From an uncultured virus (IMG/VR IMGVR_UViG_3300025141_014349) (taxonomy: Duplodnaviria; Heunggongvirae; Uroviricota; Caudoviricetes), in the IMG/VR virus record IMGVR_UViG_3300025141_014349: a stretch of DNA of 64,000 bases; one strand, 5' to 3'. This document shows positions 7,577 through 52,566 of this stretch, piece after piece. The first letter of the stretch is position 1; each line of letters opens with the position of its first letter. A program made the position numbers and the translations under genes. The notes below the pieces were generated by a model. That model worked only from the letters and a program-made list of their open reading frames with translations. It did not search any database and was not told the DNA's origin.

Positions 7577-8353
7577 TTAGTGAGTAAATGTTACTGGATC
7601 TACATCTGCCTTTCCTTCGAATAAACTTTTCAATTCTTTGTGAGTAGGCGAGAGAAGAACATGATGAAACTGACCATTGACCCGACTCACGATTCCCACT
7701 ATCTCCCCCTTAGAATCAAGAACGGGGGACCCGGAAGCACCGGGACCCGAAGGCACAGTAAACGTAGACATCTCATGCGCGCCATCTATCTTAAGATTTC
7801 CACTATAATAACCACTAAATATGAGAGATACATCTTTAGAAAAAATAGCGAAAGGAGAAGAGATATTGATAACCGGTTCGCCCAGCGGCGCCGCAGTTGC
7901 GCTGATATTTAGATTTCCGGAATCTACTAAAGGAATGTGTATTATGCATGCATCAAAATTTTTAGCAACAAAGGCGGCAAAAGCAGTATGTATTTTTTCG
8001 TTCTTATCTGCAATATGCAGATCCCACTCTATGGGTGGTTCTGATGGCGGCACACTATTAAGTGAGTCGGGAACGCAAACATGCGCAGCACTTAGTACGG
8101 CGGTGCCCCATTTCTCATGATGCGCAACAATGGCGCCACTCCCATACCATTCTCCAAGTTTTTCATCGCCACTTCTGGCAGTGCCCGTTACGAGAACTGC
8201 ACTTCCCGCCGCCTCTACTAAATTATATTTTTCATCTTTTTCTTTACTACATCCAGTCGATTCATGATCTTGTTTATGAGAACATGCTAAAAATAAAAAA
8301 AGCACCAGGAAAGATACAACCTGCTTTGGGGTCTTTATCAGAGAATGTCCCAT
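7577..8353 (-). CDS. Trypsin-like serine protease, predicted lipoprotein
   Basis: LSAAHVC (His), FDAC (Asp), GPGASGSPV (Ser); hydrophobic N-terminus ending in LAC. Confidence 0.85.
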   Translation of the reverse strand: MGHSLIKTPKQVVSFLVLFLFLACSHKQDHESTGCSKEKDEKYNLVEAAGSAVLVTGTARSGDEKLGEWYGSGAIVAHHEKWGTAVLSAAHVCVPDSLNSVPPSEPPIEWDLHIADKNEKIHTAFAAFVAKNFDACIIHIPLVDSGNLNISATAAPLGEPVINISSPFAIFSKDVSLIFSGYYSGNLKIDGAHEMSTFTVPSGPGASGSPVLDSKGEIVGIVSRVNGQFHHVLLSPTHKELKSLFEGKADVDPVTFTH

Positions 8354-10792: not shown

Positions 10793-11245
10793 ATGGCAAA
10801 AATTGAAATTAAAGAAGGCAAAGATACTGTTTCCGTCCAAGTATCAGTTCCGGCATTGCCTCCTAAGGCGAAAGACGCAAAAGAGTTGAAAGAATCTCTA
10901 ACTCGACAGCAGGTGTGCGACCACATAAAGGCAAAGGGCATCAAAATTGGTGCACTAGTATCTGGTCCCCACAGTGTAAGTAATTTATCTGGTCGCTCTC
11001 AAACGGGAACTTTTGTGTTCAAGAGGGAAATGCCTCCTGCGACTAAAAAAGTCTTGACACCGGAGACTAAGCATGTTATAATACCTGAAGCGACGCGCTC
11101 GTGGGTAGAACCAATGCTGGGAGATAAACATCCACCCGCGTCGCCTCCCGCTTCTGAAGCAGGGGAAGAAATTAGCAAACCTCCGAGGAGGAGGAGAAAG
11201 CGAGTCTCGCGTGCATCAAAAACAACAAACTCAACAACCAGTTGA
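10793..11245 (+). CDS. Hypothetical protein with basic C-terminus
   Basis: ORF with AGGAG SD. Confidence 0.65.
   Translation: MAKIEIKEGKDTVSVQVSVPALPPKAKDAKELKESLTRQQVCDHIKAKGIKIGALVSGPHSVSNLSGRSQTGTFVFKREMPPATKKVLTPETKHVIIPEATRSWVEPMLGDKHPPASPPASEAGEEISKPPRRRRKRVSRASKTTNSTTS
11054..11082 (+). promoter_or_regulatory. Perfect consensus sigma70 promoter inside a CDS
   Basis: TTGACA-17 bp-TATAAT with TG extension. Confidence 0.85.
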
Positions 11246-17411: not shown

Positions 17412-18218
17412 TTGAATATTATAGAGGTCGAGGATTTTTCGAAAGTGGATGATCCAGTTAAGACAGAAGAGACTTTGCACTTACAATTGACTGCGATGGC
17501 GTCAAGCATCGATACACAATATTCTTATGTATCGATGCCTTTGGCATGGAGTATAAACAAGCGCGGACTTGGGGACACACAGCGTCGCATTGATAGCATA
17601 TGCCGGCATTCTAAAAAGTTATTTTTCATTTGTCAACATATTCTAGTAGATCGTTTGAACTTTCATGGAAACTTGGTATTTACTCCGCATGCTACAACGA
17701 TGGACTTTTTCACGCCAATTCCCCATTATAGTTGTAATTATGATTTGAACTTTTCTAAACCTTGGGAAGAGAGGGAATATACTTTTAGTTTTGTAGGATC
17801 CTTTTTGACTCATCCTGTGAGGCGGAGAATTGCTGAATACCTTAGGGGGAGAAAGGATTGTTTAGTAGTAGATACTGGACAATGGCATTTTGAGGGCGCC
17901 CAAGAAAAGCAACAGAATAATTCTAGAAATTATAGTGAAGTCTTGGGTGATACCAAGTACAGTTTGTGCCCTCGTGGAACAGGTCCGTCCACGATTAGGA
18001 TATGGGAATCTATGGCGATGGGCGCTAAACCAATTATCCTCAGTGATCATCTAAAGATGCCCTTGTCCCTCGAATGCGATACACAACTCTGGGAAAGAAC
18101 GCCGGAAAAATTTGATAATTTGGATAAATTTTTCAATAATGAAAAGTATGACAATAAAGAATATTTTCAATTTTTCTCAAATGAGAATCTTTACAAGTCC
18201 GTTACAACTTTGCTGTGA
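17412..18218 (+). CDS. Exostosin-like glycosyltransferase (GT47)
   Basis: FSFVG...R; YSLCPRGTGPSTIRIWESMAMGAKPIILSD. Confidence 0.8.
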   Translation: MNIIEVEDFSKVDDPVKTEETLHLQLTAMASSIDTQYSYVSMPLAWSINKRGLGDTQRRIDSICRHSKKLFFICQHILVDRLNFHGNLVFTPHATTMDFFTPIPHYSCNYDLNFSKPWEEREYTFSFVGSFLTHPVRRRIAEYLRGRKDCLVVDTGQWHFEGAQEKQQNNSRNYSEVLGDTKYSLCPRGTGPSTIRIWESMAMGAKPIILSDHLKMPLSLECDTQLWERTPEKFDNLDKFFNNEKYDNKEYFQFFSNENLYKSVTTLL

Positions 18219-18865
18219 GGAATCGAGATACTTTGATGTCGAAAATGGTAGAAATTAAATATGTAGAGGGACACTTGCTTGTAAATCCTAAAATTGCTCT
18301 TGTAGGATCAAGCGACTTGCTTCTTAAATCTGGATATGGTGTAGAAATAGATATATTTCCGGAGGTGGTACGGTTCAATCGTGCACCCACCATAGGGCAT
18401 GAGCACGATGTGGGATCGAAGACAACCATTCGTGTTGCGAACAACCACGTATTTGATGGGGTGAAGTTAGATTCATCTCAATGGCCAAACCAGCCGTCGG
18501 ATTTTATAAAAAACTTACGCAATACTAAAATATGCTATTTAGGACCCGATATGACACCTTGGTTGGATCGCAAGAAAAAAGCACATGATAGTTGTAGTTT
18601 GTTTAGATTCAAATATGAAAAAATGACAGAATTAAAAAAGATATGCGGTTACGATCAAAAGAAAAATTTTAGCGTTGGTACCACCTTTGCTTGTCTTTGT
18701 GTCATATCGGGGGTAGTGCCTCATCTATATGGATTTGATGTAGAGGACAGATATCGTGGGCATTACTTCGAGGCGCGCCCGCCCGCCGGTCCAATCCACA
18801 ATATAATTCAAGAAAAGAATTTACTAAAAAAAATGAATGAGGAAGGTCTCATAATCGTAAAGTAG
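18215..18865 (+). CDS. GT29 sialyltransferase-like protein
   Basis: Sialylmotif L (ALVGSS..LL..GYG.EID....VVRFNRAP...DVGSKTT), S (SVG...HLYGF), III (HYFE), VS (HNIIQE). Confidence 0.85.
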   Translation: MRNRDTLMSKMVEIKYVEGHLLVNPKIALVGSSDLLLKSGYGVEIDIFPEVVRFNRAPTIGHEHDVGSKTTIRVANNHVFDGVKLDSSQWPNQPSDFIKNLRNTKICYLGPDMTPWLDRKKKAHDSCSLFRFKYEKMTELKKICGYDQKKNFSVGTTFACLCVISGVVPHLYGFDVEDRYRGHYFEARPPAGPIHNIIQEKNLLKKMNEEGLIIVK

Positions 18866-18877
18866 TGTAAATTTTTG

Positions 18878-18916
18878 TTGACATATGCTTGACATTATGC
18901 TAATATAAGATAGAAT
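18878..18916 (+). promoter_or_regulatory. Overlapping sigma70-type promoters
   Basis: TTGACA(18878)-17-TAATAT with TG extension; TTGACA(18889)-16-TAGAAT. Confidence 0.7.
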
Positions 18917-18934: not shown

Positions 18935-19885
18935 ATGAAATATCAAAAAATTAAAAATCATCTGAAGGGTCCTGTCTTTCCTATAATTACGCCATTTACT
19001 TCAGCACCCTCTTATGGTATAGATTACGATTCGACATGTGCTTATGTTGATTTTTTATATGAAAGCGGAGTGCGCCACTTCTATGTCATGACTTACAACA
19101 GCAGATTTAGTTTGCTTTCATGGGAAGAGATGAAAAAATTGAACGAAGTTGTCACTAGGCGCGTGAAAGACAAGAAAGAGGATTGTATAGTTATTGTAGC
19201 TGACCCTCTGACTAACCCCACTAATGTGAGTGTTGACTTCGCGAAGCATGCCCAAGACATTGGTGCCGATCTCATTAGTTTGATTTTTATGGAAAGATAT
19301 TATAGTGATGATCAGATTTACAATCACTACAACACTGTCGCTTCGAATTCAGATATCGCAATACTAATTCACGAGCAAACCCTTCCGTCATCAAAGGGAG
19401 GACCGGCAACGCTTTATCCAATAGAGTTATTAGATAGACTTGCTGATATAGATAACGTAATAGCGCTAAAAGAGGATAGTAAGATTCCCACATTTTCTGA
19501 GCAAGTGATTGAAGCAGTCGGAGACAGACTAAACATTATTATTTCTGGAAGAGGAAAGAGACAGTTTATACATTTTAGCAGGATGGGGTGCGATGGGTAC
19601 TTAGTTGGTGTAGGCAGTTTTGCACCAAAGGTAAGTTTAGATTTTTACGAAGCATGTCTGAAAGATGATATGGACACTGCGTGGGGAATTATCAACGAGA
19701 TTGAGCGACCCTTTCTACGGGCCGGCATGAAATACGGTTGGCACCCAGCTCTCAAATCGGCAATGGATGAGTTGGGCATCATGAGCAGGACAGAGCGCCC
19801 ACCACTAGTCCAAATATCAGACCAAGATCATTCGCAACTAGTTAAAGTTTTGAAGAAGATCCAAGACTCAAAATATTACAGATAG
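18935..19885 (+). CDS. DapA/NanA family class I aldolase
   Basis: IITPF N-terminus; Schiff-base Lys in VIALKEDS; ALKSAM...ERPPL. Confidence 0.8.
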   Translation: MKYQKIKNHLKGPVFPIITPFTSAPSYGIDYDSTCAYVDFLYESGVRHFYVMTYNSRFSLLSWEEMKKLNEVVTRRVKDKKEDCIVIVADPLTNPTNVSVDFAKHAQDIGADLISLIFMERYYSDDQIYNHYNTVASNSDIAILIHEQTLPSSKGGPATLYPIELLDRLADIDNVIALKEDSKIPTFSEQVIEAVGDRLNIIISGRGKRQFIHFSRMGCDGYLVGVGSFAPKVSLDFYEACLKDDMDTAWGIINEIERPFLRAGMKYGWHPALKSAMDELGIMSRTERPPLVQISDQDHSQLVKVLKKIQDSKYYR

Positions 19886-19894
19886 GAGGAGAAT

Positions 19895-20587
19895 ATGAAC
19901 ATAGCTGTTATCCCGGCTCGCGCAGGATCTACCAGATTGAAGAATAAAAATATTCATCTTCTTGGAGGCAAGCCTCTTATTCGTTGGACAGTGGAATCTG
20001 TAGTTGAGTCTGGGTGCTTTGATAAAATAGTTGTTTCTACTGATGGCGATGAGATATTTGAAGCGGTCAAAGATCTTCCAGTTGCGAGGCATATACGCCC
20101 AGATAATCATGCCACTGTTACTGCCACCGCTCTTGATGCGATGGTGGATTATATGAAGCACAATCCACCTCACAACACCTCCCGGCCAGACGATGTAATC
20201 TTTGCTTATTTTCTTCCTACTTGTCCCTTTGTTTCTCCAGAAGATATTAAAAGAGGCATTGAAATGATGAAAAAAGGTGCAGATACCGTCGTTAGTATGA
20301 CTGAAATGCCTGAAACTATTCAATTAGCATGTATTATGAGGGATGATTGGGTGATGCCTGTTTTTGATAATCTAGAATGCGGATTGACTAACAGCAAATT
20401 CATTAAAAAATATCACAAACCTTCCGGTGCCTTTTATATGGGGCGCTGGGATAAAATTTTAGAAAATAGAAACTTTTTTAAAGGAAATGTAAAGGGGGTT
20501 CTCATGCCACCGGAAAGGTCGGTAGATATTAATACCATCGAGGATGTGCACTACGCGTCCACCGTGTTGAAAAGGGGAACTAAATGA
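19895..20587 (+). CDS. neuA: CMP-nonulosonate (acylneuraminate) cytidylyltransferase
   Basis: IPARAGSTRLKNKN; STD; PTCPF; SVDINT. Confidence 0.9.
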   Translation: MNIAVIPARAGSTRLKNKNIHLLGGKPLIRWTVESVVESGCFDKIVVSTDGDEIFEAVKDLPVARHIRPDNHATVTATALDAMVDYMKHNPPHNTSRPDDVIFAYFLPTCPFVSPEDIKRGIEMMKKGADTVVSMTEMPETIQLACIMRDDWVMPVFDNLECGLTNSKFIKKYHKPSGAFYMGRWDKILENRNFFKGNVKGVLMPPERSVDINTIEDVHYASTVLKRGTK

Positions 20588-21480
20588 AATGGGAACCCAC
20601 GCTCTTAACTCCCGGATCCCCAGTATATGTGAGAGATCTTGATATGGATTTTTTAGAGGAAAGATTGCGCGCGCGGAAACCTTTTAGTTTTTGGAAATTA
20701 AATCATGCGCATTGGGAATTGTTGTTGAGATATTACAGGTCGACCGAGGGGGATTCTCCTATTGAGAGAGAGGTTTTATTATCTTCTCGCTTCTGTGAAG
20801 GGTTTGCTAGGTGGATGCTTAAAGAACAACGGTTTTATCCATGCGCGTCACCGGAGGCGTTTGTGGAGGTGCTGACGCGCATCAATACCTTATTATCCAC
20901 GATGCCTTACGACTCCACAATTGATAGCAATTACTATATTGGAGTTTCGGACTCATCGGTATGGGACTATAAAAATATTAATGGAAAAACTAATAGCAAA
21001 CACAAAGTGTCAGTGAGGGGAGTTAATGAGATTATAAGAGGCCATCTCCCGCTGGATCATTCTATGGAGTCTTCCAACCTTCCCGTGAGAGGCACTCTAT
21101 TTAAAAAAGCATACCGCCAACACCGGAAGCGCTTGGAGAGTTTTGTAGCAACGGCGGCTCATGGTTTTCCCACCTTATACGTGGGGAACATTGAGATAAG
21201 ACCTCATCTTCGCAAAAAAATAGCACATATTCCTACACATCCACACAACAACCTTAGTGCATCAAACGCTATATTAGATAAAATACGGGCATGGCATGCC
21301 ACCCTTGATCCCGGTGCACCAAAGATTATTTTTTTTAAAGGTGGACACACGCAAGCACTCTGGATTGATACCCTCTACCAGGAATTGGAAAATACTTACC
21401 TTCTTGATGTGGGACAGGCACTTGATCCCCTCGTCAGGCACAGTCATATAAGTAAGAGATGGGAGAGGGTGGGGCAATGA
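20584..21480 (+). CDS. Hypothetical protein (possible divergent glycosyltransferase)
   Basis: Translationally coupled ORF; C-terminal LLDVGQALDP is reminiscent of GT-D-like proteins. Confidence 0.5.
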   Translation: MKWEPTLLTPGSPVYVRDLDMDFLEERLRARKPFSFWKLNHAHWELLLRYYRSTEGDSPIEREVLLSSRFCEGFARWMLKEQRFYPCASPEAFVEVLTRINTLLSTMPYDSTIDSNYYIGVSDSSVWDYKNINGKTNSKHKVSVRGVNEIIRGHLPLDHSMESSNLPVRGTLFKKAYRQHRKRLESFVATAAHGFPTLYVGNIEIRPHLRKKIAHIPTHPHNNLSASNAILDKIRAWHATLDPGAPKIIFFKGGHTQALWIDTLYQELENTYLLDVGQALDPLVRHSHISKRWERVGQ

Positions 21481-22688
21481 CTTTTAAATTACTTTTTCTT
21501 GGTGGCAGCGATATTCAAATTCCCGCCATAAGGCGCGCCAAACAAATAGGATACGAAATTATTTTGTGCGACTATCTTCCCACGAACCCAGGACGAACGG
21601 TGTGCGACAAGTATTATGATGTGAGTACTACCGATTTTGAGGGTATACTTGAGGTGGCTCGTACAGAAAATATAGATGGTATTATTGCTTATGCATCTGA
21701 TCCCGCCGCCGCTACTGCTGCTTTTGTATCTGAAAAGATGAATCTGCCCGGAAAACCCCTCAGTGGAGTACAGACTCTCACCAATAAGTATCAATTCCGT
21801 TCGTTGCTTAAGACGAGGGGTTATCGATGCCCCACCTTCGCCAAGGTGGAAGGACCGCTTGATTGTATAGCATTTGTAGGAAAGCATGGAAAAAGTATTA
21901 TAAAACCGCTAGATTCGTGTGGAAGCAAAGGAATTAGGGTGGTAGATAAGCATACAGATTTTGGTGACGCCTTTAGTATTTCTAAGTCATTTTCTAGAGA
22001 AGGTGGCGTAATTATAGAAAAATTTATTGAGAAAAAGGGATTTCAAATGTCTGGAGATGTATTGATAATCGAAGGAAAAGTAGCTTTTTCTAAGTATGGC
22101 GACGTGCATTTTGATGCGCAGTGCAATTCTATTGTTCCCTGCTCCATCACAGTGCCTTCGACCCACTCTCCTTCCGTCCATAGTGCCATAGATGATATAT
22201 GTGAGAGAATATTTGAGGATTTAAAAATAAGATGTGGAACATTTAATGTGGATGTCCTTGTGGGTGACGATGACGGCATTTACATAATAGAAATTGGAGC
22301 ACGGAATGGAGGAAATTTATTGACTGAAGTGATTTCCATGCAGTCCGGTTATGACTTGGCGGGGATTACCTTGCGGAATGCTATGAGACATCCCACCATA
22401 GGAGAGGCACTGCGTAGCGAGAATTGGAGTGAAGGTGCACCTGCCTGCGCGCACTATGTTATTCATGCCGAAAAAGACGCCACCCTCGACAATATTATTT
22501 ATTCGGAAGAGATTGAAAAAAACATTGTGTATCAATACTTAGCAATTAAACACGGCGCCGAAGTTAAAATGTTTGATGGGTCGAATAAAAGGGTGGGAGT
22601 CTGTCTGTTGAGATTTGACTCGCCGACTGAGATGCGCGATAAAATTATTAATATGAAAGATCATATAATTCTTAAATATAAAAGATAA
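21477..22688 (+). CDS. ATP-grasp ligase
   Basis: IIKPLDSCGSKGI; IIEKFI; IIEIGARNGG. Confidence 0.85.
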   Translation: MTFKLLFLGGSDIQIPAIRRAKQIGYEIILCDYLPTNPGRTVCDKYYDVSTTDFEGILEVARTENIDGIIAYASDPAAATAAFVSEKMNLPGKPLSGVQTLTNKYQFRSLLKTRGYRCPTFAKVEGPLDCIAFVGKHGKSIIKPLDSCGSKGIRVVDKHTDFGDAFSISKSFSREGGVIIEKFIEKKGFQMSGDVLIIEGKVAFSKYGDVHFDAQCNSIVPCSITVPSTHSPSVHSAIDDICERIFEDLKIRCGTFNVDVLVGDDDGIYIIEIGARNGGNLLTEVISMQSGYDLAGITLRNAMRHPTIGEALRSENWSEGAPACAHYVIHAEKDATLDNIIYSEEIEKNIVYQYLAIKHGAEVKMFDGSNKRVGVCLLRFDSPTEMRDKIINMKDHIILKYKR

Positions 22689-22699
22689 GATGGTGTATA

Positions 22700-23566
22700 G
22701 TGAAGAAGATGAATGAGACTAATGATGGCATATATATAGGTCCAAAATCGGACACTCCAGGCGCTACTTTTCATGAGAAGAGGGATAAACCCGCCCTTCT
22801 AAGGAATTTGGCGGAGGATTACCGCCAGCAATCTTATTGGGAAACTCCTTACTACTTCTCGTTTTTAGATAAATGTTTAGAGGGGATCCCCCTCCAAGAT
22901 AAGGTGTGTCTGGACGTGGGATGCGGCGACGGACGATTCGCTGAATATCTTATTAAGAGGGGAGCGCGCAAGATTATTTGTATAGACTCTGATTATGAAT
23001 CTTTAAAATCTTTGCTGAGTTATAGCGAGGAGAAAGGGTTTAGAGAGTCGCTAACTCTTATACAAGCGGGAGCAGAGAATATTCCCCTCCCACCAGACTC
23101 AGTAGACGTGGCAATTGCCATTGGAGTTTTTTATTATTTGGGAGGCGACTATGAGAGGGGCATTGAATCCGTTTATGAAAAGATTAAGAAAGATGGTATT
23201 CTTATCTCATCTGAACCTAACCTAGAGGGACTCGCATTGCGTTCGCTTTTATTTGATTCTTTGGGCGAGATGATATCTATTTTTCAAGATGGCGTGTTTA
23301 GAGAAAAATCAGGCGACATTAGTTGCATCTTCCCTCTTCATTCTACGGGAAAGATTGAATCTTTCTACGAAACGGCAGGATTTAAATTGATTCAAAGGCA
23401 TGCAATTTCTCTTTTCCACCAGTTGGTGCGTATTTTATATTTGCGAGGAAATATTAGTGACGATGAACTAGATACTAATAGGGGCAAGTTGCGCGAGGTC
23501 TTTGACTATTTAGATAGAGAGAAAGGCCAATTTACGAAAACTTGGATTTATGGGTGGCAAAAGTAA
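22700..23566 (+). CDS. Class I SAM-dependent methyltransferase
   Basis: CLDVGCGDG; AENIPLPPDSVD. Confidence 0.85.
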   Translation: MKKMNETNDGIYIGPKSDTPGATFHEKRDKPALLRNLAEDYRQQSYWETPYYFSFLDKCLEGIPLQDKVCLDVGCGDGRFAEYLIKRGARKIICIDSDYESLKSLLSYSEEKGFRESLTLIQAGAENIPLPPDSVDVAIAIGVFYYLGGDYERGIESVYEKIKKDGILISSEPNLEGLALRSLLFDSLGEMISIFQDGVFREKSGDISCIFPLHSTGKIESFYETAGFKLIQRHAISLFHQLVRILYLRGNISDDELDTNRGKLREVFDYLDREKGQFTKTWIYGWQK

Positions 23567-24483
23567 TTTATGAGAATATGCTCGACTCAATAGGCAATAC
23601 TCCCTACATACGCTTCCAGACAGATGAAGTAAAGGGGGCGAAAATTTATATTAAACTAGAGGGTTATAATCCTACGGGGAGCATCAAGGATCGTGCCTGT
23701 TTGTATAATATTAAGGGCGCAATTAAATCGAAAAAGTTAAAAAAAGGAATGACTATTCTAGATGCATCTAGTGGTAATATGGCCTGCGCCATCGCGTACT
23801 ACGGAAAGATTATGGGATATAAAACGCATTTGGTGTGCGGGAGTAAATTAACTTCAGAAAAGAAAAATTTTATAGAATATTTTGATGGCACATTAGAAAT
23901 GCACGGAGACTATACCATTCAGGGAAATGATTATTGTCGTAAAATGTTGGTGCCCTCGGATTCTTCTTATTGTTTTTTAGACCAACTTCATAATGAAAAT
24001 AATCCTTTGGCATCTTATGAAACTCTTGGGCCTGAAATTTTAGAGTCATTCCCGCAAGTTAAAGCTATTGTAGGTTCGTTGGGATCGGGGGGGAGTATGT
24101 ATGGGTCCGGAAGATATATAAAGGAAAATTCTCCTTTGACTAAGGTGATCGCTGTTGAAGCAGGGCACGGGTCTAAAATTCCGGGTACTGGTGCATTTGC
24201 TGATGGTGATTATATTACCCCTTTTATTGGAAATGCTCGTAGGGAAGGTATTTTTGATGACTCTATTTCAATCTCGATTGACGATGCTATACTGAGAACT
24301 AAGCAGTTGTCGGAGCAGGGAATATTTGTGGGATTTCAAACGGGGGGCGTTCTTGATGCTTGTATAAGGACGATTGCTCGCGATGAAATTAAAGGAGATG
24401 TTGTGATGGTGTCCGGAGATTCGGGGTGGAAAAACATTGACAAGTTAGTGGCACATGCCCAGGAGGTACCTAATTGTGTGTAA
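23554..24483 (+). CDS. PLP-dependent cysteine synthase family protein
   Basis: IGNTP; KLEGYNPTGSIKDR; SSGN; GSLGSGGS. Confidence 0.9.
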   Translation: MAKVIYENMLDSIGNTPYIRFQTDEVKGAKIYIKLEGYNPTGSIKDRACLYNIKGAIKSKKLKKGMTILDASSGNMACAIAYYGKIMGYKTHLVCGSKLTSEKKNFIEYFDGTLEMHGDYTIQGNDYCRKMLVPSDSSYCFLDQLHNENNPLASYETLGPEILESFPQVKAIVGSLGSGGSMYGSGRYIKENSPLTKVIAVEAGHGSKIPGTGAFADGDYITPFIGNARREGIFDDSISISIDDAILRTKQLSEQGIFVGFQTGGVLDACIRTIARDEIKGDVVMVSGDSGWKNIDKLVAHAQEVPNCV

Positions 24484-24949
24484 TTTAGGCGTAGATTTTC
24501 ACGACACTATTTCATTCGCTCCCGACTTCTTTAAAGAAATATTTCGGACGTGGGGAACAAAACGATATATAGTAACTGGCACTCCGGAGTCAAGGAGGGG
24601 TGAGACTATAAAACAATTAGAAGACATGGGGATTACTGCGGATTTATACGATGAACTTTTAATGGGGTATGAATATAATAAGAGCGAAATGACAATCGAT
24701 CATTTCCATCGGATGAAGGTGCATAAATTACAAATAATAAAGGATTATAACATATCAATTTATTTTGATGATAATCCCTTTTACGTAGAATATTTGCGCA
24801 ATCATAATATAATCGTTTTTCAAACAATATTGAATGATAAATATTTGACAGAGTTCGAAAATAAAAACAATTTTTTCACCTGCAATTTACAGAGAGGACA
24901 GTTTAAATATTTAGCAGATGGCGAGAGCGGGCAAAATAATGAGAGCTAG
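24455..24949 (+). CDS. HAD-superfamily phosphatase-like protein
   Basis: GVDFHDTI motif I variant; VTG; K; YFDD. Confidence 0.65.
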   Translation: MPRRYLIVCNLGVDFHDTISFAPDFFKEIFRTWGTKRYIVTGTPESRRGETIKQLEDMGITADLYDELLMGYEYNKSEMTIDHFHRMKVHKLQIIKDYNISIYFDDNPFYVEYLRNHNIIVFQTILNDKYLTEFENKNNFFTCNLQRGQFKYLADGESGQNNES

Positions 24950-25580
24950 CGGCGTATATAAGGTCACGGAAGAATTCGAAAGTGAAGTGGCGAAATACAC
25001 AGGTGCTCCCTACGCAGTAGCGGTGGATAGTTGTAGCAATGCACTTTTTCTGGCGTTGAAGTACGAGGGAGTTGAGGGTATGGAAATTACTATTCCTTCT
25101 CGGACTTATCCGTCCGTTCCGTGTGAAATAATTCATGCTGGCGCTTCAGTTAATTTTGAGAAGGTTAGGGGAACTACTATTAAAGGCGCTTATCAGTTGT
25201 TTCCTACTCCCATATGGGATTCGGCGCTAAGATTTACTCATAATATGTATATGTCAGGTACCCATATGTGTCTATCTTTTACGGGTCCCTTTAAGCACCT
25301 TAAGCTTAGCAAGGGTGGAATGATTTTAACTGATAATGAAGATGCATACGAATGGTTTATGCGCGCCCGATACTCGGGCCGACGCCAATGCCCTTACCAT
25401 GAAGATAATCTAGATATGCTGGGGTGGAATTTTTATATGATGCCAGAACTCGCAGCACGCGGACTTTTGTTGATTCGCCAATTCTATACTCCTATAGGGA
25501 AACTCCCCATCGCATATGAAGACGCCGAGATGATGTATCCTGATTTGTCCAAATTTACTGTTTACGGAGGTAAAAAATGA
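24918..25580 (+). CDS. Short DegT/DnrJ/EryC1 sugar aminotransferase
   Basis: AVAVDSCSNALFLAL; DSA; SFTGPFKHL; GGMILT; GWNFYM. Confidence 0.85.
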   Translation: MARAGKIMRASGVYKVTEEFESEVAKYTGAPYAVAVDSCSNALFLALKYEGVEGMEITIPSRTYPSVPCEIIHAGASVNFEKVRGTTIKGAYQLFPTPIWDSALRFTHNMYMSGTHMCLSFTGPFKHLKLSKGGMILTDNEDAYEWFMRARYSGRRQCPYHEDNLDMLGWNFYMMPELAARGLLLIRQFYTPIGKLPIAYEDAEMMYPDLSKFTVYGGKK

Positions 25581-25850
25581 AGAACTATATAGACTGGCGC
25601 CCAACCGAGGATAAATATACGAAGAAGGGGCAAAAACCTTAGAAAACTCCAGCGCGGCAAGCCTTACGGAGAGCAAGCAAATAGAATAAAAATTGATTAT
25701 CCTGAGTTGTATGAAGATATCAAATCAAGCATAACTCCTATTTATGGACCATCTGGGACTCTGGTAATATTTGAGACTGATACATTTCATATGGGCGGAA
25801 CAGTAAGCGGCGGTCATGAAAGAAAGATATGCCGGTTGCATATGAGATAA
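25577..25850 (+). pseudogene. Broken gene: 21-codon start plus out-of-frame C-terminus of a PhyH/2OG-Fe(II) dioxygenase-like protein
   Basis: MKNYIDWRPTEDKYTKKGQKP*; another frame gives ...PIYGPSGTLVIFETDTFHMGGTVSGGHERKICRLHMR* with no in-frame start. Confidence 0.55.
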
Positions 25851-25861
25851 TGATAGAAGAT

Positions 25862-26869
25862 ATGAAGAAAAGAGCATTGATTACTGGTATAACAGGTATG
25901 GACGGAAGTTACATGGCAGACCTCCTTTTGTCTAAAGGATACCAAGTATATGGATTATCCAGGAATTTACCTCTAGAAAATGATAATGCGTCGCACCTTC
26001 ATGATGATGTAGAGTTCTTTACAGTTGACATTAGAGATTTTGGTGGTGTAAAATCAGTGATATCAGACATTCAACCTCATGAAATATACAATTTTGCTTC
26101 TCAGTCTTCTGTTTCTTCTTCGTGGAAAGATCCGCTTCTTACTCATCAGACGAACACAACCGGAGTTCTAAACTTATTAGAATCAATTAGAGAGGTGAAT
26201 AAGAATATTAAGTTTTTTCAGGCTAGTTCGTCAGAAATGTTTGGCGAACTTATCGGCGAGAAATCCCCAGCGAAGCAAAGCGAAATAACTCCATTTTGGC
26301 CTAAGAATCCCTATGCTTCTTCTAAACTATACGCTCATTGGATTACTAAAAACTATAGAGATGCATACGGAATATTTTGTTGTTGCGGTATATTGTTTAA
26401 TCATGAGAGCGAAAGACGTGGGAAAAATTTCGTTAGTAGGAAGATAACTTCTGAAATAGCTAAAATATATTTAGGAATGTCAAATGGATTTTCTCTTGGA
26501 GATATAAGCGTGAAGCGTGATTGGGGATATGCCAAAGATTATGTTGACGCCATCTGGCGCATGCTACAGCAGAGTGAGGAATCTTTCTGCTCTGGCAAGA
26601 GGGGAGATTTTGTGATAGCAACCGGCGTTACGAGGTCTATCAGGGATTTCTTATCAACTGCGTTCGGCGTAATAGGGGTAGAAAGGTGGGATGATTATGT
26701 ACAATATGACACCGAACTTCTCAGACCGGATGACACCCGCGTATTGTGCGGCGATCCATCTAAGATTGAAAAAATTCTTGGATGGCGCCCAACAACTTCT
26801 TTTGAAGAGATAGTGAAAAGAATGGTAGAGCATGATATAGATATCTTAGGGGGAGATCTTGATCTCTAA
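25862..26869 (+). CDS. gmd: GDP-mannose 4,6-dehydratase (copy 1)
   Basis: ALITGITGMDGSY; QASSSE; YASSK; GILFNHES; RDWGYAKDY. Confidence 0.9.
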   Translation: MKKRALITGITGMDGSYMADLLLSKGYQVYGLSRNLPLENDNASHLHDDVEFFTVDIRDFGGVKSVISDIQPHEIYNFASQSSVSSSWKDPLLTHQTNTTGVLNLLESIREVNKNIKFFQASSSEMFGELIGEKSPAKQSEITPFWPKNPYASSKLYAHWITKNYRDAYGIFCCCGILFNHESERRGKNFVSRKITSEIAKIYLGMSNGFSLGDISVKRDWGYAKDYVDAIWRMLQQSEESFCSGKRGDFVIATGVTRSIRDFLSTAFGVIGVERWDDYVQYDTELLRPDDTRVLCGDPSKIEKILGWRPTTSFEEIVKRMVEHDIDILGGDLDL

Positions 26870-28721
26870 GGGCGAGACCTATATCATAAGCGAGATAGGA
26901 ATCAATCATAACGGGAGTCTTAAGACGGCACTCGAATTGATTGAAGCTTCCGCCGCTGCGGGTGTCGATGCTGTTAAGTTTCAAAAAAGAAAACTTGAAA
27001 ATATATATGCGAAAAGTATCCTTGACAACCCCAATTCGGCGGAGTGGAATTTTGATTATCTGATTCCTCTCTTGAAAGAATTCGAATTGACTCATGAAGA
27101 ATATTATGTAATAAAAAAGAAATGTGATGATCTTAATTTAGAACTAATTATCACTCCTTTTGATGAAGATTCTGCTACTTTTGCGCATGAGTTAGGCATA
27201 AGTGCTTTCAAGATCGCTTCTGCCGACATGACAAATTATTCACTAATACGGAAATGCGCTTCCTTTGGAATACCACTTATAATTTCCACGGGAATGTGGA
27301 ATGAAGAAGATATAAGAAAGTGTGTAAGTTATTGTGATACATTAGAATTTGAATATACTTTGCTTCTTGCCAACTCAACCTATCCAACTCCTTATGAATC
27401 TCTAAATTTGGGATTTTTTGATACACTAAAAAGCATTCATTCCTCAGTTGGATATTCGGGTCACGAAAGGGGCACCTTTATCCCCATTGCCGCAGTTGCC
27501 AAGGGCGCCACGATTGTAGAGAAGCATATAACCTTTGACAGATATGCGGAAGGACCCGATCACAAAGCTTCTATGTATCCTGAAGAATTTAGGGAAATGG
27601 TGGATAATATAAGAAATCTTGATCTTGCCATGGGAGATGGAAAGAAAGTTAACCAGGCGGAGACTTTGGCAAAGGAAGCTTTCGCTAGGTCGGCGGTGGC
27701 AGTGACCGATTTGAAGGTGGGTCATATTTTGTCACTGGAGGATGTGGACTATAAATCACCAGGGAAAGGAATCTTTCAGCATGAAATTGAAGATTTTATC
27801 GGTCGCCCTCTAAAGAGAAATATCAAAGAGGGTGGATATATCGCAAGCAAAGATTTTGAAGAAATTGTTCCCATCAAGGAATGGAAGATTCCCGATTTTA
27901 CTAAAAGGTGGGGAGTGAAATGTCGCTTCCATGATTATGATGAATATGAATCGGTCAAATCACCCGTGGTAGAGTTTCACTGTTCCGAGACGGATCTAGA
28001 TGTTGACTTTACGGGAGAAAGCAAGCACTCTCAACTCGTTGTCCACGCGCCGGAAATAGTAGGAAGAGAACTCGTGGATCTCTGTTCTGATGACCCAAGA
28101 ATCGTGAAGAACTCCATAGATATACTGCAAAAAACCATAAGCAAGACTCTCCAGATGGCACAGAGATTCCCATCTGCGAAACCAAAGATTGTTATGCACT
28201 TGGGGGGAATGAGTTTGAAGCACGTCCTTAGTGAGAAACCAAACGAACTAATGATCGAGAAATCGATAGATAATTTTAAAAAACTGAAGTTCAATAACGC
28301 AGACGTAGAAATACTACCAGAAAACCTTCCGCCCAGACCGTGGTACTTGGGAGGACAGTGGTTTCAGTATGGATTTATGCCCGCAGAAGATATGATTAGA
28401 TTTTGCGAACATTTCGATTTAGGGATGACTTTTGATATTTGCCATGCGGGACTTTACTGTAATCATAGTGGAGTGGATTTGAAGGATTATAGTAAAGACG
28501 TATTGCACCTTGTTAAGCACGTACACATCTCCGATGCCCGAGGAATAGACGGCGAAGGAGTTGGCATAGGGGAGGGAAATATAAAATTTGAAGAAATTTT
28601 AGATGTTTTGCGACCTGGTGATTTTTCGTGGGTAACTGAAATATGGAGCGGACACTTACATCAGGGATGCGGGACATATAAGTCTATGCACCAACTGAAG
28701 AAATTCTCTTCTTTACTGTAG
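26859..28721 (+). CDS. neuB: Nonulosonate synthase NeuB + SAF domain + xylose-isomerase/AP-endonuclease-like TIM barrel
   Basis: EIGINHNG; VKFQKR; KIAS; STGM; GYSGHE; EKHITFD; GPDH; C-terminal ENLPP, DICH, HVHISDA. Confidence 0.9.
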   Translation: MISKGETYIISEIGINHNGSLKTALELIEASAAAGVDAVKFQKRKLENIYAKSILDNPNSAEWNFDYLIPLLKEFELTHEEYYVIKKKCDDLNLELIITPFDEDSATFAHELGISAFKIASADMTNYSLIRKCASFGIPLIISTGMWNEEDIRKCVSYCDTLEFEYTLLLANSTYPTPYESLNLGFFDTLKSIHSSVGYSGHERGTFIPIAAVAKGATIVEKHITFDRYAEGPDHKASMYPEEFREMVDNIRNLDLAMGDGKKVNQAETLAKEAFARSAVAVTDLKVGHILSLEDVDYKSPGKGIFQHEIEDFIGRPLKRNIKEGGYIASKDFEEIVPIKEWKIPDFTKRWGVKCRFHDYDEYESVKSPVVEFHCSETDLDVDFTGESKHSQLVVHAPEIVGRELVDLCSDDPRIVKNSIDILQKTISKTLQMAQRFPSAKPKIVMHLGGMSLKHVLSEKPNELMIEKSIDNFKKLKFNNADVEILPENLPPRPWYLGGQWFQYGFMPAEDMIRFCEHFDLGMTFDICHAGLYCNHSGVDLKDYSKDVLHLVKHVHISDARGIDGEGVGIGEGNIKFEEILDVLRPGDFSWVTEIWSGHLHQGCGTYKSMHQLKKFSSLL

Positions 28722-31306: not shown

Positions 31307-32035
31307 ATGATTGATAAAAAAGAAAGAAGCATCGTCAAAGCGCTTTCGTGGCGAGGATTCGCAGTGCTTATTTTAGGAATTGTTACCTACGCGGTTACTA
31401 AAGATGGGCAGCAGGCGTCGGTTATTACCATCGCTTACCATGGTGTCCAGATCGGCGCGTTTTTCGTTCATGAGAGGATCTGGAATTATGTAAACTGGGG
31501 ACGCACTCAAGGGTTATTTGTTCAGATGACAGGACTTAGCGGAGCAGGCAAAACAACGATTGCTAAGAAACTTCAACTTCGACTTCAAAAGAGGGGATTT
31601 AAGGTGGAGGTGATTGATGGCGATGAATATCGTGAAGGACTGTGTAAAGACTTAGGGTTTTCTAAGGAAGATAGGAACACCAATATTCGCCGTTTGGGTT
31701 TTGTGGGTAAAGTTCTGGCGCGCAATGATGTCATTACTATTATGTCCGCAATCAATCCTTATGAGGAGATTCGTAAAGAAGTTCGCCACCTGAGTCGACG
31801 AGTGAAGACTGTTTTTATCGATTGCGATATAGAAGAGTTGAAGAAACGCGACACGAAAGGACTTTATGCCAAGGCACTCCTCCCAGACGGGGATCCTAAT
31901 AAAATTCATAATTTTACAGGTATTTCGGATCCTTTCGATGCGCCTTTTGTGTGTGATTTAACCATTAACACTACCAATGAAGCAGAAAAACAATCTGTGG
32001 ATAGACTAGAAAAATTTATTTTGGAGAATATATAA
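31307..32035 (+). CDS. cysC: DUF2061-like membrane domain fused to adenylylsulfate (APS) kinase
   Basis: KALSWR...HERIW; TGLSGAGKTT; DGD..R..L; KRDTKGLY; FTGISDPF. Confidence 0.9.
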   Translation: MIDKKERSIVKALSWRGFAVLILGIVTYAVTKDGQQASVITIAYHGVQIGAFFVHERIWNYVNWGRTQGLFVQMTGLSGAGKTTIAKKLQLRLQKRGFKVEVIDGDEYREGLCKDLGFSKEDRNTNIRRLGFVGKVLARNDVITIMSAINPYEEIRKEVRHLSRRVKTVFIDCDIEELKKRDTKGLYAKALLPDGDPNKIHNFTGISDPFDAPFVCDLTINTTNEAEKQSVDRLEKFILENI

Positions 32036-48858: not shown

Positions 48859-51800
48859 ATGGGAATTAAAAATCTTTTCAATAGAGATGCTGACACTAAG
48901 ATAGTGTCTCTCACAAATAAGACCGAAGCATCTGAGAATATTGAATCTACGAGTTATTATTCTGCGAAAGTAAAGCAGAAAGGTAGATTTGAACCTCATA
49001 TTGATTATTCTAATCCTCTGTTTTTTTCCAAGTTTGGTTCTGCTGAAAAATATTATCACGATGCGATAACCAATATCTATACTTACTATCCCTTTGATGG
49101 ATCTCTCTATGAGAGAACCGCATGGGAACTGAGCGCGTCTGGAATTCAGAAATATATTTTTGAGGAAGAATATCCGCGAAGAAATGGTTATATAGACTTT
49201 TCTTATGGTGGTTGGGGATCAACAACCCTTTCTACTGGATCTTACGCGCTCCCCACTGACGCCGAGTATATTACTGTCCATGGCGGACCGAACAAAGATC
49301 CAGAGGGGAACGGCAAATCTTTAGCTAGTATTTTTATAAACTCTAGTTCCAACTTTTATAATGTCAGTCATAACCGAGAATCAAATCTAGAATTCGCCAG
49401 CGCCGGAAACGCGATTGAATTTTGGATGAAAAAAGACGGTTTCGTCGCCGCCGGTCAACAAGAAGTCATATTTGACCTCTGGTCCAGCGGTTCGGCAGTG
49501 GCCAGCGCTGATTACGGAAGATTCTGCATTCTTATTAATAGTTCTTCTTCCCCTCTTCATGTTACTTATTTATCGGGAACAACTGGACTTTCGGCAAGTT
49601 TTAGTGGCACAAGCGCTCCCACCACTGCTTCTTTGGCAGATGGACAGTGGCACCATTATGCGGTAAGTGCAGACTCTTCTACTGGAAAGGCGGAACTGTA
49701 TGTTGATGGCGTCTATAAAGATTATATTCTAGGCGCCCCCATCACTGAGGTAACCGGCGCGCTCATTGCTAACATAGGATCTTATTATGAAGCACGCAGC
49801 GCCGATACACTTGAAGCGTTCACGGGGTCACAAGTCCCTGGTTGGTGTAAATTATCTGCCTCCTTAGACGAATTTAGGTTTTGGAAAACTACCCGTAATG
49901 ATAAAAATATTGGGCAATATTGGTTTACTCAAGTTGGCGGTGGCACTAACGAAGATAATGCCAATACTGATTTGGGAGTTTATTATAAATTCAACGAAGG
50001 TATTACCCAGACTGCTTCCATAGATTCTAGAGTTCTCGACTATTCGGGAAGATTCTCAGATGGAACGTGGACAGGATACGCTGCCGGCGCGCGCAACACT
50101 GGATCTGCTATGGTTATTGCGGGAGCAGCAGAGAGAGAGTTTAAAGATCCTATTATCTATTCTTTTCATCCTGCTGTTGTTTCATTGTTGTCGGATAAGA
50201 AATCTATTGGGAAGCAATACGATTATACTAACGCTGCTTCCTTATATTACAGTCTTCCATCCTGGATTATTGACGAGGACCATGATGTCGGCGGCGACTT
50301 ACTGAATGTCGTCCAGATTGTGTCTAACTATTTTGATTCTCTTTATTTACAAACCAAAGAACTTCCTAAACTAAAAAATGTTCAGTATCTTAGTTCTTCG
50401 GAGAAACCTTATCCATTCACCAACAAGTCTCTTGAATCTCTGGGGTTTGCCACGCCCGACCTGTTCTTAGAGTCTGATATTCTAGAAGCAATTGGTTCAC
50501 GCAACGATACAGAAGAGTTCGATGAAAAAATCTGGAATGTTAAAAATCTAATTTATCAAAACATTTATAATAATTTAGTTTACATTTATAAAACTAAAGG
50601 AACGATGAAATCTTTTAGGAACCTTCTTAGATGCTATGGTATTGATGAAGAGTTAGTAAGAGTAAACTTGTATGTGGATGGCACCACCTATGAGATGAGA
50701 GATGATTATAAATTACAGGCGCTAGAGAAAAAGTTTGTAAATTTTGCTGGTACCGACAGATTCAATGGAACTGTGTATCAGACTGCATCTTCGGATATCG
50801 CTGATTCGCGAACCTATATAGCGGGTTCTTCTCATATTGCGTCTTCTTCTTGGACATGGGAATCTCAAGTAGTGGTCCCATCTAAGTTTCCTATTAGTTC
50901 TGATTTATATTTCGAAACTGCATTTATATCTGCTTCATTGTTCGGACAACACCAAGCAGTCTCTGATCAGGCAGATTATACATGGCATACAGATGATAAT
51001 AATAATTTTCAAGTTTATCTTGTCAAGGAAGAAAAAGAATCTCTTAATGCTAAGTTTGTGTTGAAAAGTTTGTCGGAGAACTCTCCCCTTCCAACACTAG
51101 AGAGTCCTATCTACACGGATATATATGACAATACTAATTGGAATATAGCAGTCCGCATAAAACCTCAATATGAATTATACAATACTAGTTCAGCAACTCT
51201 TACAAGTTCTTATACTTTAGAGTTTCAAGGAGTGGAAACAGAGGGAGAATATATAAGGAATGAGTTTATTCTTTCCGCGTCCCTCGATGCCACATCAGGT
51301 TCGAACTTTGTTAAGAGCAATAAGCGCGTTTATGCTGGTGCACACTATACTAATTTTACTGGCACCATCTTAGAGCAAACTGATGTAAAGGTTACGAATA
51401 ATAGAGTTTGGGCGAGTTTTCTACCCAGCGACGTGATTAGAATACACGCCAAGGATAGTACCAACTACGGGACCAAGTACCCATACCGAAATGCATATCC
51501 AGAGAATTCTGACATTTCCGCTAAATCTATTCCGGCGATAGAGACTCTATCTTTGTTTTGGGGATATGATACTCTAAGCAGCTCAGACGATGGTGCCGGA
51601 CCTGGGTATACGGCGGGGTTCAATGTCGATGATATATCTTCGGGATCAGCAGACCCATATAGAAATTATGGGTTTCTCAATGACGCCCTCAAGACACAAC
51701 ATCCCGGAAGAGGAAACAAATTTTTAGCAAATGACACAGATGCTATCCAAAAAGAATATCTGTCTAATGCCAAACTCCAATCAATTGAAACTGTCCAGAG

Positions 51801-52566
51801 CGATGATCTCGTAGAAATCATTAGCGAATCAGATGAGGAGATATTTACACGCGAATCTCGTCCGCTCGAATATGTGTACGCTATAGAAAAAGGCATGCAA
51901 CAAGTTATTTCTGATGAAATGATTGATGTCTTCGGATCTATTGCAGATTTTAATAATATAATCGGGCAACCTGTCAATCGTTATCGACAAAATTATCATG
52001 ACATGGGCAAACTGAGACAGATATTTTTTAGTAGAGTTAAAAACATACCAAGTCTCATAAAGTATGTTGAATTCTATAAGTGGATCGATGGAGCAATAAC
52101 ATCCATGATTCAGCAACTAATTCCTGCTACTGCTCAATTTTCGGACAGAGTGGCAACGGTTGTAGAAAGTCACGTATTAGAAAGAAATAAATATTGGAAT
52201 AAATTTCCCACGGTGGAACTGGAAGAGGACACCCCTAGTTCGCCCTTAAGGGGCGTCAATGAACTTTCTTATCCATGGAAATCGGGATCGCCGCCCCTCA
52301 ATACCTCTCAAAGCAGAAATTGCTATTGGTGGAAAAACAGAGCAGAATTTCATGGGTCTGCTCGCGCCTCGATTATTTCGTCTTCCCATAGCACCTTTGA
52401 CCGCGAATTTGGGAGTCCTATTCAGTTCGATGCTCCAGGCGTTGAAAGAACCGGCGGCGGTGTGATAAAATTAGATATAACACGCCAAACGACAAAATTC
52501 GGATCAAACGGATATTTATTAGTATCCACGAGTAGCTTTTCGCAAGCGGACTGTTTAGATGACTAG
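48859..52566 (+). CDS. Virion structural protein with LamG/concanavalin A domain
   Basis: IEFWMK; DGQWHHYAV; LYVDG; SLDEFRFW; YYKFNEG; IYKTKGT baseplate-like motif. Confidence 0.75.
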   Translation: MGIKNLFNRDADTKIVSLTNKTEASENIESTSYYSAKVKQKGRFEPHIDYSNPLFFSKFGSAEKYYHDAITNIYTYYPFDGSLYERTAWELSASGIQKYIFEEEYPRRNGYIDFSYGGWGSTTLSTGSYALPTDAEYITVHGGPNKDPEGNGKSLASIFINSSSNFYNVSHNRESNLEFASAGNAIEFWMKKDGFVAAGQQEVIFDLWSSGSAVASADYGRFCILINSSSSPLHVTYLSGTTGLSASFSGTSAPTTASLADGQWHHYAVSADSSTGKAELYVDGVYKDYILGAPITEVTGALIANIGSYYEARSADTLEAFTGSQVPGWCKLSASLDEFRFWKTTRNDKNIGQYWFTQVGGGTNEDNANTDLGVYYKFNEGITQTASIDSRVLDYSGRFSDGTWTGYAAGARNTGSAMVIAGAAEREFKDPIIYSFHPAVVSLLSDKKSIGKQYDYTNAASLYYSLPSWIIDEDHDVGGDLLNVVQIVSNYFDSLYLQTKELPKLKNVQYLSSSEKPYPFTNKSLESLGFATPDLFLESDILEAIGSRNDTEEFDEKIWNVKNLIYQNIYNNLVYIYKTKGTMKSFRNLLRCYGIDEELVRVNLYVDGTTYEMRDDYKLQALEKKFVNFAGTDRFNGTVYQTASSDIADSRTYIAGSSHIASSSWTWESQVVVPSKFPISSDLYFETAFISASLFGQHQAVSDQADYTWHTDDNNNFQVYLVKEEKESLNAKFVLKSLSENSPLPTLESPIYTDIYDNTNWNIAVRIKPQYELYNTSSATLTSSYTLEFQGVETEGEYIRNEFILSASLDATSGSNFVKSNKRVYAGAHYTNFTGTILEQTDVKVTNNRVWASFLPSDVIRIHAKDSTNYGTKYPYRNAYPENSDISAKSIPAIETLSLFWGYDTLSSSDDGAGPGYTAGFNVDDISSGSADPYRNYGFLNDALKTQHPGRGNKFLANDTDAIQKEYLSNAKLQSIETVQSDDLVEIISESDEEIFTRESRPLEYVYAIEKGMQQVISDEMIDVFGSIADFNNIIGQPVNRYRQNYHDMGKLRQIFFSRVKNIPSLIKYVEFYKWIDGAITSMIQQLIPATAQFSDRVATVVESHVLERNKYWNKFPTVELEEDTPSSPLRGVNELSYPWKSGSPPLNTSQSRNCYWWKNRAEFHGSARASIISSSHSTFDREFGSPIQFDAPGVERTGGGVIKLDITRQTTKFGSNGYLLVSTSSFSQADCLDD

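Follow-up and report, generated by a model that had tools for sequence, protein, structure and literature searches.

A predicted soluble GT29 glycosyltransferase encoded beside CMP-ulosonate genes in a T4-like marine phage

The window analyzed here is a stretch of 64,000 nucleotides taken from the start of a 134.5-kb virus record, which is 74% complete. The same contig carries genes for a T4-like terminase, portal, prohead protease, gp23 capsid protein, sheath, and baseplate, together with endolysin-like and SLT genes. The T4-like structural genes bear out the phage origin given in the initial annotation, and the endolysin and SLT genes indicated that the host would be a bacterium. The best-matching sequencing runs are marine metagenomes, and pieces identical over the GT29 gene described below were present in contigs from all four other marine runs examined. 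The source is a T4-like marine myophage. Its tail region (48859-58930) encodes large proteins with a ConA-like/LamG domain (1235 aa) or FG-GAP repeats (2123 aa), which are possible receptor-binding parts, and a trypsin-like protease gene is located at 7577-8353 on the opposite strand (-).

A glycan island of 22 ORFs, recognized by Pfam matches, extends from 12034 to 32436 on the plus strand. Its products include GT4, GT4-GT2, and GT47 glycosyltransferases, a nucleotide-diphospho-sugar transferase, sulfo- and methyltransferases, two GMD-like proteins, a PMI cupin, and an APS kinase. No membrane protein was found among the 22 ORFs, all 19-residue hydropathy windows being below 1.9. A perfect sigma-70 consensus with an extended -10 element was seen at 11054-11082, upstream of an exonuclease gene and the island, and two overlapping sigma-70-like matches (11 and 10 of 12; consensus match only) are located at 18878..18916 (+), at the start of the donor block that follows the GT29 gene. 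The T4 late-promoter pattern gave 7 matches against 4.8 expected, with none at the island. The APS kinase gene (DUF2061 plus PF01583) occurs in two copies, at 31307-32035 in the window and at 86692-87420 on the full contig (G000:C1), and a second glycan island (C1, 86121-93202) contains rml-like genes, a sulfotransferase gene, and two GT92 genes. The doubled APS kinase and the sulfotransferase of the second island suggest a sulfated glycan.

The gene under study is the ORF at 18215..18865 (+), which reads through 216 codons, starting at a GTG that overlaps the stop of the preceding GT47 gene; the reverse frame over the same positions contains many stops. The database gene call begins at Met8 and yields 209 aa, so the true length is probably about 206 to 216 aa. 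The protein matched PF00777 with an E value of 3.5e-18 and 66.4 bits against a Pfam cut-off of 23, and a single-sequence search of solved structures returned ST6Gal-I and ST3Gal-I as the best hits. Among 5.8 billion proteins searched, 248 candidates were retrieved, 136 of which are relatives, and an alignment and profile were built from 88 of the 120 relatives listed (identity, about 36 to 63%). This profile aligned with pig ST3Gal-I (2wnb) over positions 10-205 of 207 (E value, 3.6e-23). The AlphaFold model (pLDDT, 96; pTM, 0.92) has GT29 structures as its four best structural matches (Z, 17.0 to 14.7; rmsd, 2.9 to 3.4 Å; 184 to 192 residues), and Foldseek concurred. GT42 was rejected as the family, since CstI reached a Z of only 9.2 versus 17.0 for GT29. 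Neither PHROGs nor NCBIfam contains a model for the protein. The profile score, the end-to-end match, and the comparison with ST3Gal and ST6Gal folds confirmed the GT29 membership proposed in the initial annotation.

All four sialylmotifs are placed in order by the alignment with ST3Gal-I, in agreement with the earlier assignment. Motif L spans aa 27-76 (18293..18442), and motif S spans aa 152-174 (18668..18736). Motif III reads HYFE (aa 183-186, 18761..18772), corresponding to HYWE in ST3Gal-I, with H in 87/88 and Y in 88/88 rows. Motif VS extends from H195 to E200 (18797..18814), corresponding to H..E in ST3Gal-I; its His, the predicted catalytic residue according to the role described for it in the available part of PMC10225777, is present in 88/88 rows and its Glu in 86/88. 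Residues H195, Y184, R53, N55, G67, and G173 are invariant in all 88 rows. At the sites of the animal disulfide cysteines, the phage protein has Ile27 in motif L and Gly166 in motif S, and the four residues most often seen at either column of the 88-row alignment do not include Cys. A hydrophobic stretch before motif L was found in 0/88 rows, and the top 19-residue hydropathy window of the phage protein (1.58) falls on the motif-S helix. The lack of a membrane anchor therefore stands as well, and we conclude that the ORF encodes a minimal GT29 protein, soluble as judged from its sequence, of the anchor-less and disulfide-less kind known from bacteria.

Such bacterial enzymes, with four sialylmotifs and neither a transmembrane segment nor an L-S disulfide, were described by Petit et al. 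in 2018 (PMC5811610), and the phage protein agrees with them in all these features as far as the available part of that report goes. It differs in being phage borne and about 210 aa long, and no exchangeable donor cassette like the one described below is seen in that part; the words "phage," "virus," and "viral" are absent from the text. With the animal Golgi enzymes (pig ST3Gal-I [2WNB/2WNF], ST6GalNAc-II, ST6Gal-I, and ST8Sia-III), the phage protein shares the fold (Z, 14.7 to 17.0), the motif order, and the VS histidine, but it has no type II anchor, stem, or disulfide, is only 20 to 25% identical, and is encoded next to a donor pathway.

The closest relatives are phage proteins and a protein from a SAR11 island (31% over 215 aa, 108 bits), whereas the best eukaryotic sequence scores 26% and 58 bits. 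In a quick tree of 104 rows, built without seven rows that were weak or duplicated and without clade rows shorter than 185 aa, the phage GT29 lies among phage and metagenome rows as sister to the three relatives L030-L032 (support, 99). The five eukaryotic rows are placed elsewhere in this tree, which is unrooted and contains only these 5 eukaryotes, and most cellular GT29 proteins lie outside the phage clade on long branches, the sequences of Petit et al. not being among the rows. The phylogeny called for earlier was thus run, and it groups the protein with phages, apart from eukaryotes. The label "eukaryote-type" in the initial annotation had to be dropped: the disulfide cysteines and the anchor are absent, and the protein is nested among phage rows and nearer to the SAR11 protein. 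Direct transfer from a eukaryote was rejected on the basis of the tree placement and of the SAR11 and eukaryotic scores.

Judged by its relatives, the phage GT29 belongs to a clade made up mainly of viral proteins, bacterial ones being rare. Viral sequences account for 78 to 90% of the members with a record in its three best ESM Atlas clusters (65, 473, and 131 members), and BFVD already contains GT29 models for mimivirids, for herpes- and poxviruses, and for one uncultured tailed phage. GT29 is rare in cells, being found in 2/401 SAR11-family genomes, in 6/401 genomes of the class, and in 3/401 genomes of a Bacteroidota sample (1 above cut-off). Among the SAR11 genomes, one carries a close, same-clade GT29 gene within a chromosomal glycan island, next to NeuB, lyase, and NeuA genes; this island also contains a second, stop-interrupted GT29-like match (L216, G051:C5:38301-38660). 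When GTDB was scanned with the clade motif as a pattern, none of the 8 matched stretches proved to be a relative; the scan also missed the SAR11 copy, so its empty result is no evidence of absence. Plasmids gave zero GT29 matches, and a single relative was found among 50,697 GenBank phage records. The 484-kb GenBank phage LR756508.1 carries five GT29 paralogues within 40 kb, with NeuB, NeuA, and small HAD genes (L029:3237-22369), followed at L029:24671-33064 by about eleven unknown ORFs of 200 to 285 aa with similar N termini.

The genes downstream of the GT29 gene lie on the same strand. The gap to neuA is 1029 bp, so that the distance of about 1 kb noted earlier is correct, and it contains a gene for a DHDPS/NAL-family lyase (18935..19885, +). 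This lyase matches PF00701, falls below every NCBIfam cut-off, and, according to alignments, keeps the Schiff-base Lys179, has His in place of the catalytic Tyr, and carries YNSR instead of the usual GxxGE loop. The same subtype is part of a bacterial NeuB-lyase-NeuA cassette, with a CMP-synthetase gene in 41 and a NeuB gene in 39 of 44 GTDB loci; in marine bacteria (L171-L213), the cassette is often accompanied by a PhyH-like dioxygenase or a TylF-like methyltransferase. The NeuA-type CMP-ulosonate synthetase (19895..20587, +; PF02348) is below the PseF and KdsB cut-offs, and its best solved matches are CMP-Neu5Ac synthetases, with NeuA 9ftb at the top. It is followed by six genes (20584..25580, +) for an unknown protein, an ATP-grasp protein, a methyltransferase, a PLP enzyme, a HAD-like protein, and a DegT aminotransferase, an insert that the three closest relatives (L030-L032) do not have at this position. 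The HAD-like protein (24455..24949, +; PF25109, E value of 0.007, under the cut-off) is a weak candidate for a ulosonate-phosphate phosphatase; its own copy was the sole match among the fetched loci, and it differs from the small HAD protein of the relatives.

Beyond the insert, a GDP-mannose 4,6-dehydratase-like gene (25829..26869, +; PF16363) is coupled to neuB and occupies the same position in L030-L032. We rejected GMD as an obligatory partner of NeuB, as it adjoins only 13 of 44 barrel-type NeuB genes. The neuB gene itself (26859..28721, +), 7993 bp from the GT29 gene, encodes a 620-aa protein in which a PEP-dependent synthase domain (PF03102) is joined to a SAF domain (PF08666) and a xylose-isomerase-like barrel (PF01261). 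The NeuB model TIGR03569 is its best-scoring model at 303 bits, below the cut-off of 399.65, and the protein is also under the PseI equivalog cut-off. It has KFQKR and GYSGHE where Neisseria NeuB carries KHQTH and GLSDH, and KFQK/GYSGHE may be a mark of phospho-sugar synthases.

The association of GT29 with donor genes was examined in 26 viral and 80 metagenome loci, which form 80 clusters at 90% identity; 37 clusters have at least 7 kb downstream. Neighbor profiles were seeded from Pfam-labelled genes and pooled over cluster members, with L027, L028 (weak), and L029 left out. A CMP-synthetase gene was present in the fetched flank of 35 of the 37 clusters. The synthase is NeuB in 21, KdsA in 11, and an HMGL-like aldolase in 1, with none in the flank of the remaining 4, and NeuB and KdsA never occur together. 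A DHDPS-like gene was found in 30/37 clusters, including 11/11 with KdsA and 18/21 with NeuB, a small HAD protein in 19/37, and a kinase in one cassette. In addition, a natural 695-aa fusion (P0122) joins GT29, NeuA, and NeuB. These data support the earlier statement that donor and transferase are encoded together, although they do not establish sialic acid as the donor. A WxcM/FdtA cupin is fused to GT29 in P0039 and P0123, and in a 442-kb record (L025:9968-12830) the GT29 gene is accompanied by genes for an HMGL-like aldolase, a HAD protein, and a KdsB-like synthetase, which form a third donor route.

The control set consisted of 50 sister phage records selected through the first GT4 gene of the island, after L114 (the phage itself) and L162 (6.8 kb) had been dropped from 52. 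GT29 was found in 5/50 and a CMP-synthetase in 16/50 of these, and all five GT29 records have the synthetase (Fisher P = 0.002); only one of the five GT29 proteins belongs to the clade of the window. A sixth, weak GT29 match (L121; 32 bits by our own profile, without Pfam support) is in a record without a CMP-synthetase. Eleven of the 16 synthetase records lack GT29, indicating that such donors can serve other transferases as well; some records have two different NeuB genes (L115-L165).

Comparison of close relatives revealed that the genes between GT29 and the synthetase are replaceable. The 19 whole related records (counted without L020; mostly fragments and non-independent) comprise 8 with NeuB, 9 with a KdsA-family gene, and none with both. 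In L023 (KdsA) versus L009 (NeuB), GT29 is 89% and the CMP-synthetase 86% identical, whereas the lyases are only 20% identical; the corresponding values are 85, 74, and 25% for L039 versus L055 and 73, 66, and 23% for L105 versus L103. In three lineages (with L008 standing for L009), DNA similarity breaks at or just past the end of GT29 and returns after the synthase-lyase block. A single clade for the 16 KdsA-linked GT29 proteins was rejected (AU P = 0.00016, a test chosen after seeing the tree, with labels fixed before the first tree), and 10 label changes were counted among 51 rows. The window NeuA is 67 to 70% identical to those of KdsA-type loci and 67 to 71% identical to those of the nearest NeuB relatives. 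A KANRT/S motif is conserved in the KdsA-like enzymes of relatives, two of which score high enough to pass the Kdo-8-P synthase cut-off (PRK05198). Thus, GT29 and the CMP-synthetase form a fixed frame in which either NeuB plus lyase or KdsA plus a different lyase is inserted. It is likely that this frame accepts several ulosonates, or else that the two blocks give a similar product.

Since near-identical GT29 proteins occur with exchanged sugar-making genes, a Kdn-like or Kdo-like sugar is likely, rather than ordinary sialic acid, and we consider that the donor is probably not N-acetylated. NeuC was found neither in the phage contig nor in any of the 19 relatives, but it may have been missed or be supplied by the host, given that the contig is 74% complete and the relatives are mostly fragments; PF00793 (KdsA) was likewise not found in this 74%-complete contig. 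In the available part of PMC6200933, Kdn is made from Man-6-P by a synthase, a phosphatase, and a CMP-synthetase without NeuC in Bacteroides thetaiotaomicron and Prymnesium parvum. The phage resembles this pathway in its synthase and CMP-synthetase genes, with the weak HAD-like gene as a candidate for the phosphatase, but differs in its DHDPS-like lyase and isomerase-like barrel, which are not seen in that part. A Kdo-type donor in the sister phages would have precedents, as far as the sources go, in the plant GT29 RCKT1/MGP2, a putative Golgi CMP-Kdo transferase acting on pectin (PMC11288761), and in CroV, in which Kdo-8-P synthase is paired with a NeuA-type activator (PMC9614988). By description, the plant enzyme is similar to the phage protein in that a non-sialic ulosonate is likely for both.

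A true sialyltransferase would use CMP-Neu5Ac (or a Leg/Pse counterpart) made from an amino-sugar precursor of the host, and it would account for NeuB being the best model at 303 bits, for the CMP-Neu5Ac synthetases nearest to NeuA among solved structures, and for the DegT aminotransferase in the island. We regard it as unlikely, because the scores lie below the NeuB (399.65), PseI, and PseF cut-offs, NeuC was not found in the contig or the 19 relatives, near-identical transferases occur with KdsA, and the DegT gene belongs to the insert, which is missing here from the closest relatives. Rather less doubtful, although still a minority view, is that both blocks yield the same or a very similar undescribed ulosonate for a specific transferase, the DHDPS-like enzyme remodelling the synthase product, e.g., by retro-aldol/aldol C4 epimerisation or dehydration. 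The near-constant presence of this gene with both synthases (11/11 KdsA and 18/21 NeuB clusters) as two distant subtypes (20 to 25% identical) is consistent with such convergence, and so is the finding that no GT29 column clearly separates NeuB- from KdsA-linked rows (best balanced accuracy of 0.75 versus 0.72 for the 95th percentile of shuffles, uncorrected for kinship). On the other hand, the lyase is absent from 3/21 NeuB clusters, from fusion P0122, and from the fetched stretch of the huge phage, and the KdsA-like enzymes with the KANRT/S motif, two of them at the PRK05198 cut-off, also argue against it.

From its sequence, the protein is very probably an active CMP-ulosonate transferase. 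As a whole, we slightly favor a soluble, cytoplasmic, inverting CMP-ulosonate transferase with a likely Kdn-like donor, likely capping a glycan on virion proteins. NeuB would condense PEP with a mannose-type sugar, free or phosphorylated, into a nine-carbon acid; a mannose-type substrate is suggested because NeuC was not found, a small HAD protein accompanies 19/37 relatives, and one cassette has a kinase. A phosphatase would release the free acid, which may be remodelled or recycled by the putative DHDPS-like lyase, and NeuA, clear in its family, would convert its presumed ulosonate substrate into the CMP-sugar. His195, aligned with its counterpart in ST3Gal-I, would then deprotonate the acceptor hydroxyl for inverting transfer.

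The acceptor is the least certain part of this scheme, and we see roughly balanced chances that it belongs to the virion. Glycosylation of virion proteins has a precedent in mycobacteriophages, and the membrane-free island favors a glycan made on such proteins. The strong rival is modification of the host surface, for which the acceptor would be a host glycan (a lipid-linked O-antigen or capsule repeat, or flagellin) at the inner membrane face, and receptors would be masked against other phages. The NeuB-lyase-NeuA cassette is indeed bacterial (44 GTDB loci, 41 with CMP-synthetase and 39 with NeuB), a same-clade GT29 lies in a SAR11 surface-glycan island, and O-chain modification has been proposed for glycosyltransferases of SAR11 myophages in the available part of PMC7029224. 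We nevertheless rate host-surface modification as somewhat less probable than a virion acceptor, for an island with glycosyltransferases, sugar pathways, and tailoring enzymes but zero membrane proteins suggests that an entire glycan is assembled in the cytoplasm, sister phages vary island content despite a common first glycosyltransferase, and bacterial loci carry exporters. It is highly improbable that the glycan is placed on phage DNA bases or that the gene is an idle passenger: phage glycosyltransferases that modify DNA are known (PMC9614988, in the part available), but the island enzymes are of the polysaccharide type, and catalytic residues invariant over 88 rows at about 36 to 63% identity argue against an idle gene. 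A search for TET/JBP genes returned nothing, but neither did its controls, so it carries no weight either way.

GT29 or Kdo genes have been described in eukaryotic viruses, namely, myxoma virus, a turtle herpesvirus (F-sial), EhV-18/156, CroV, and Fadolivirus, in the available parts of PMC3462797, PMC5371807, and PMC9614988. F-sial is membrane anchored and nearest to vertebrate enzymes, whereas the phage GT29 is anchor free and belongs to a virus with a bacterial host. At abstract level, no description of a phage GT29 or of a NeuB/KdsA-lyase-NeuA cassette was found in the open-access literature.

Taken together, these sequences widen GT29 to a large, mostly phage branch in which membership of the family does not determine the donor. 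The proposal of a proteobacterial origin for GT29 (PMC5811610) did not take these viral sequences into account. A 24-kDa GT29 protein without a disulfide or an anchor should be easy to express, its donor range (Neu5Ac, Kdn, and Kdo) is directly testable, and it may serve as a biocatalyst; donor testing is an open difficulty in plant Kdo-transferase work, according to the part of PMC11288761 available. Tentatively, we envisage a plug-in system in which a donor-tolerant GT29 and the CMP-synthetase are fixed, while a two-gene block would switch the terminal C9 or C8 ulosonate of the virion glycan; its DHDPS-like partner could be a new remodelling enzyme, making an undescribed sugar also present in many marine bacteria. 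An unstudied ulosonate pathway common to phages and many marine bacteria is suggested by the exchangeable block, which also draws attention to variable glycans as a phage-host interface.
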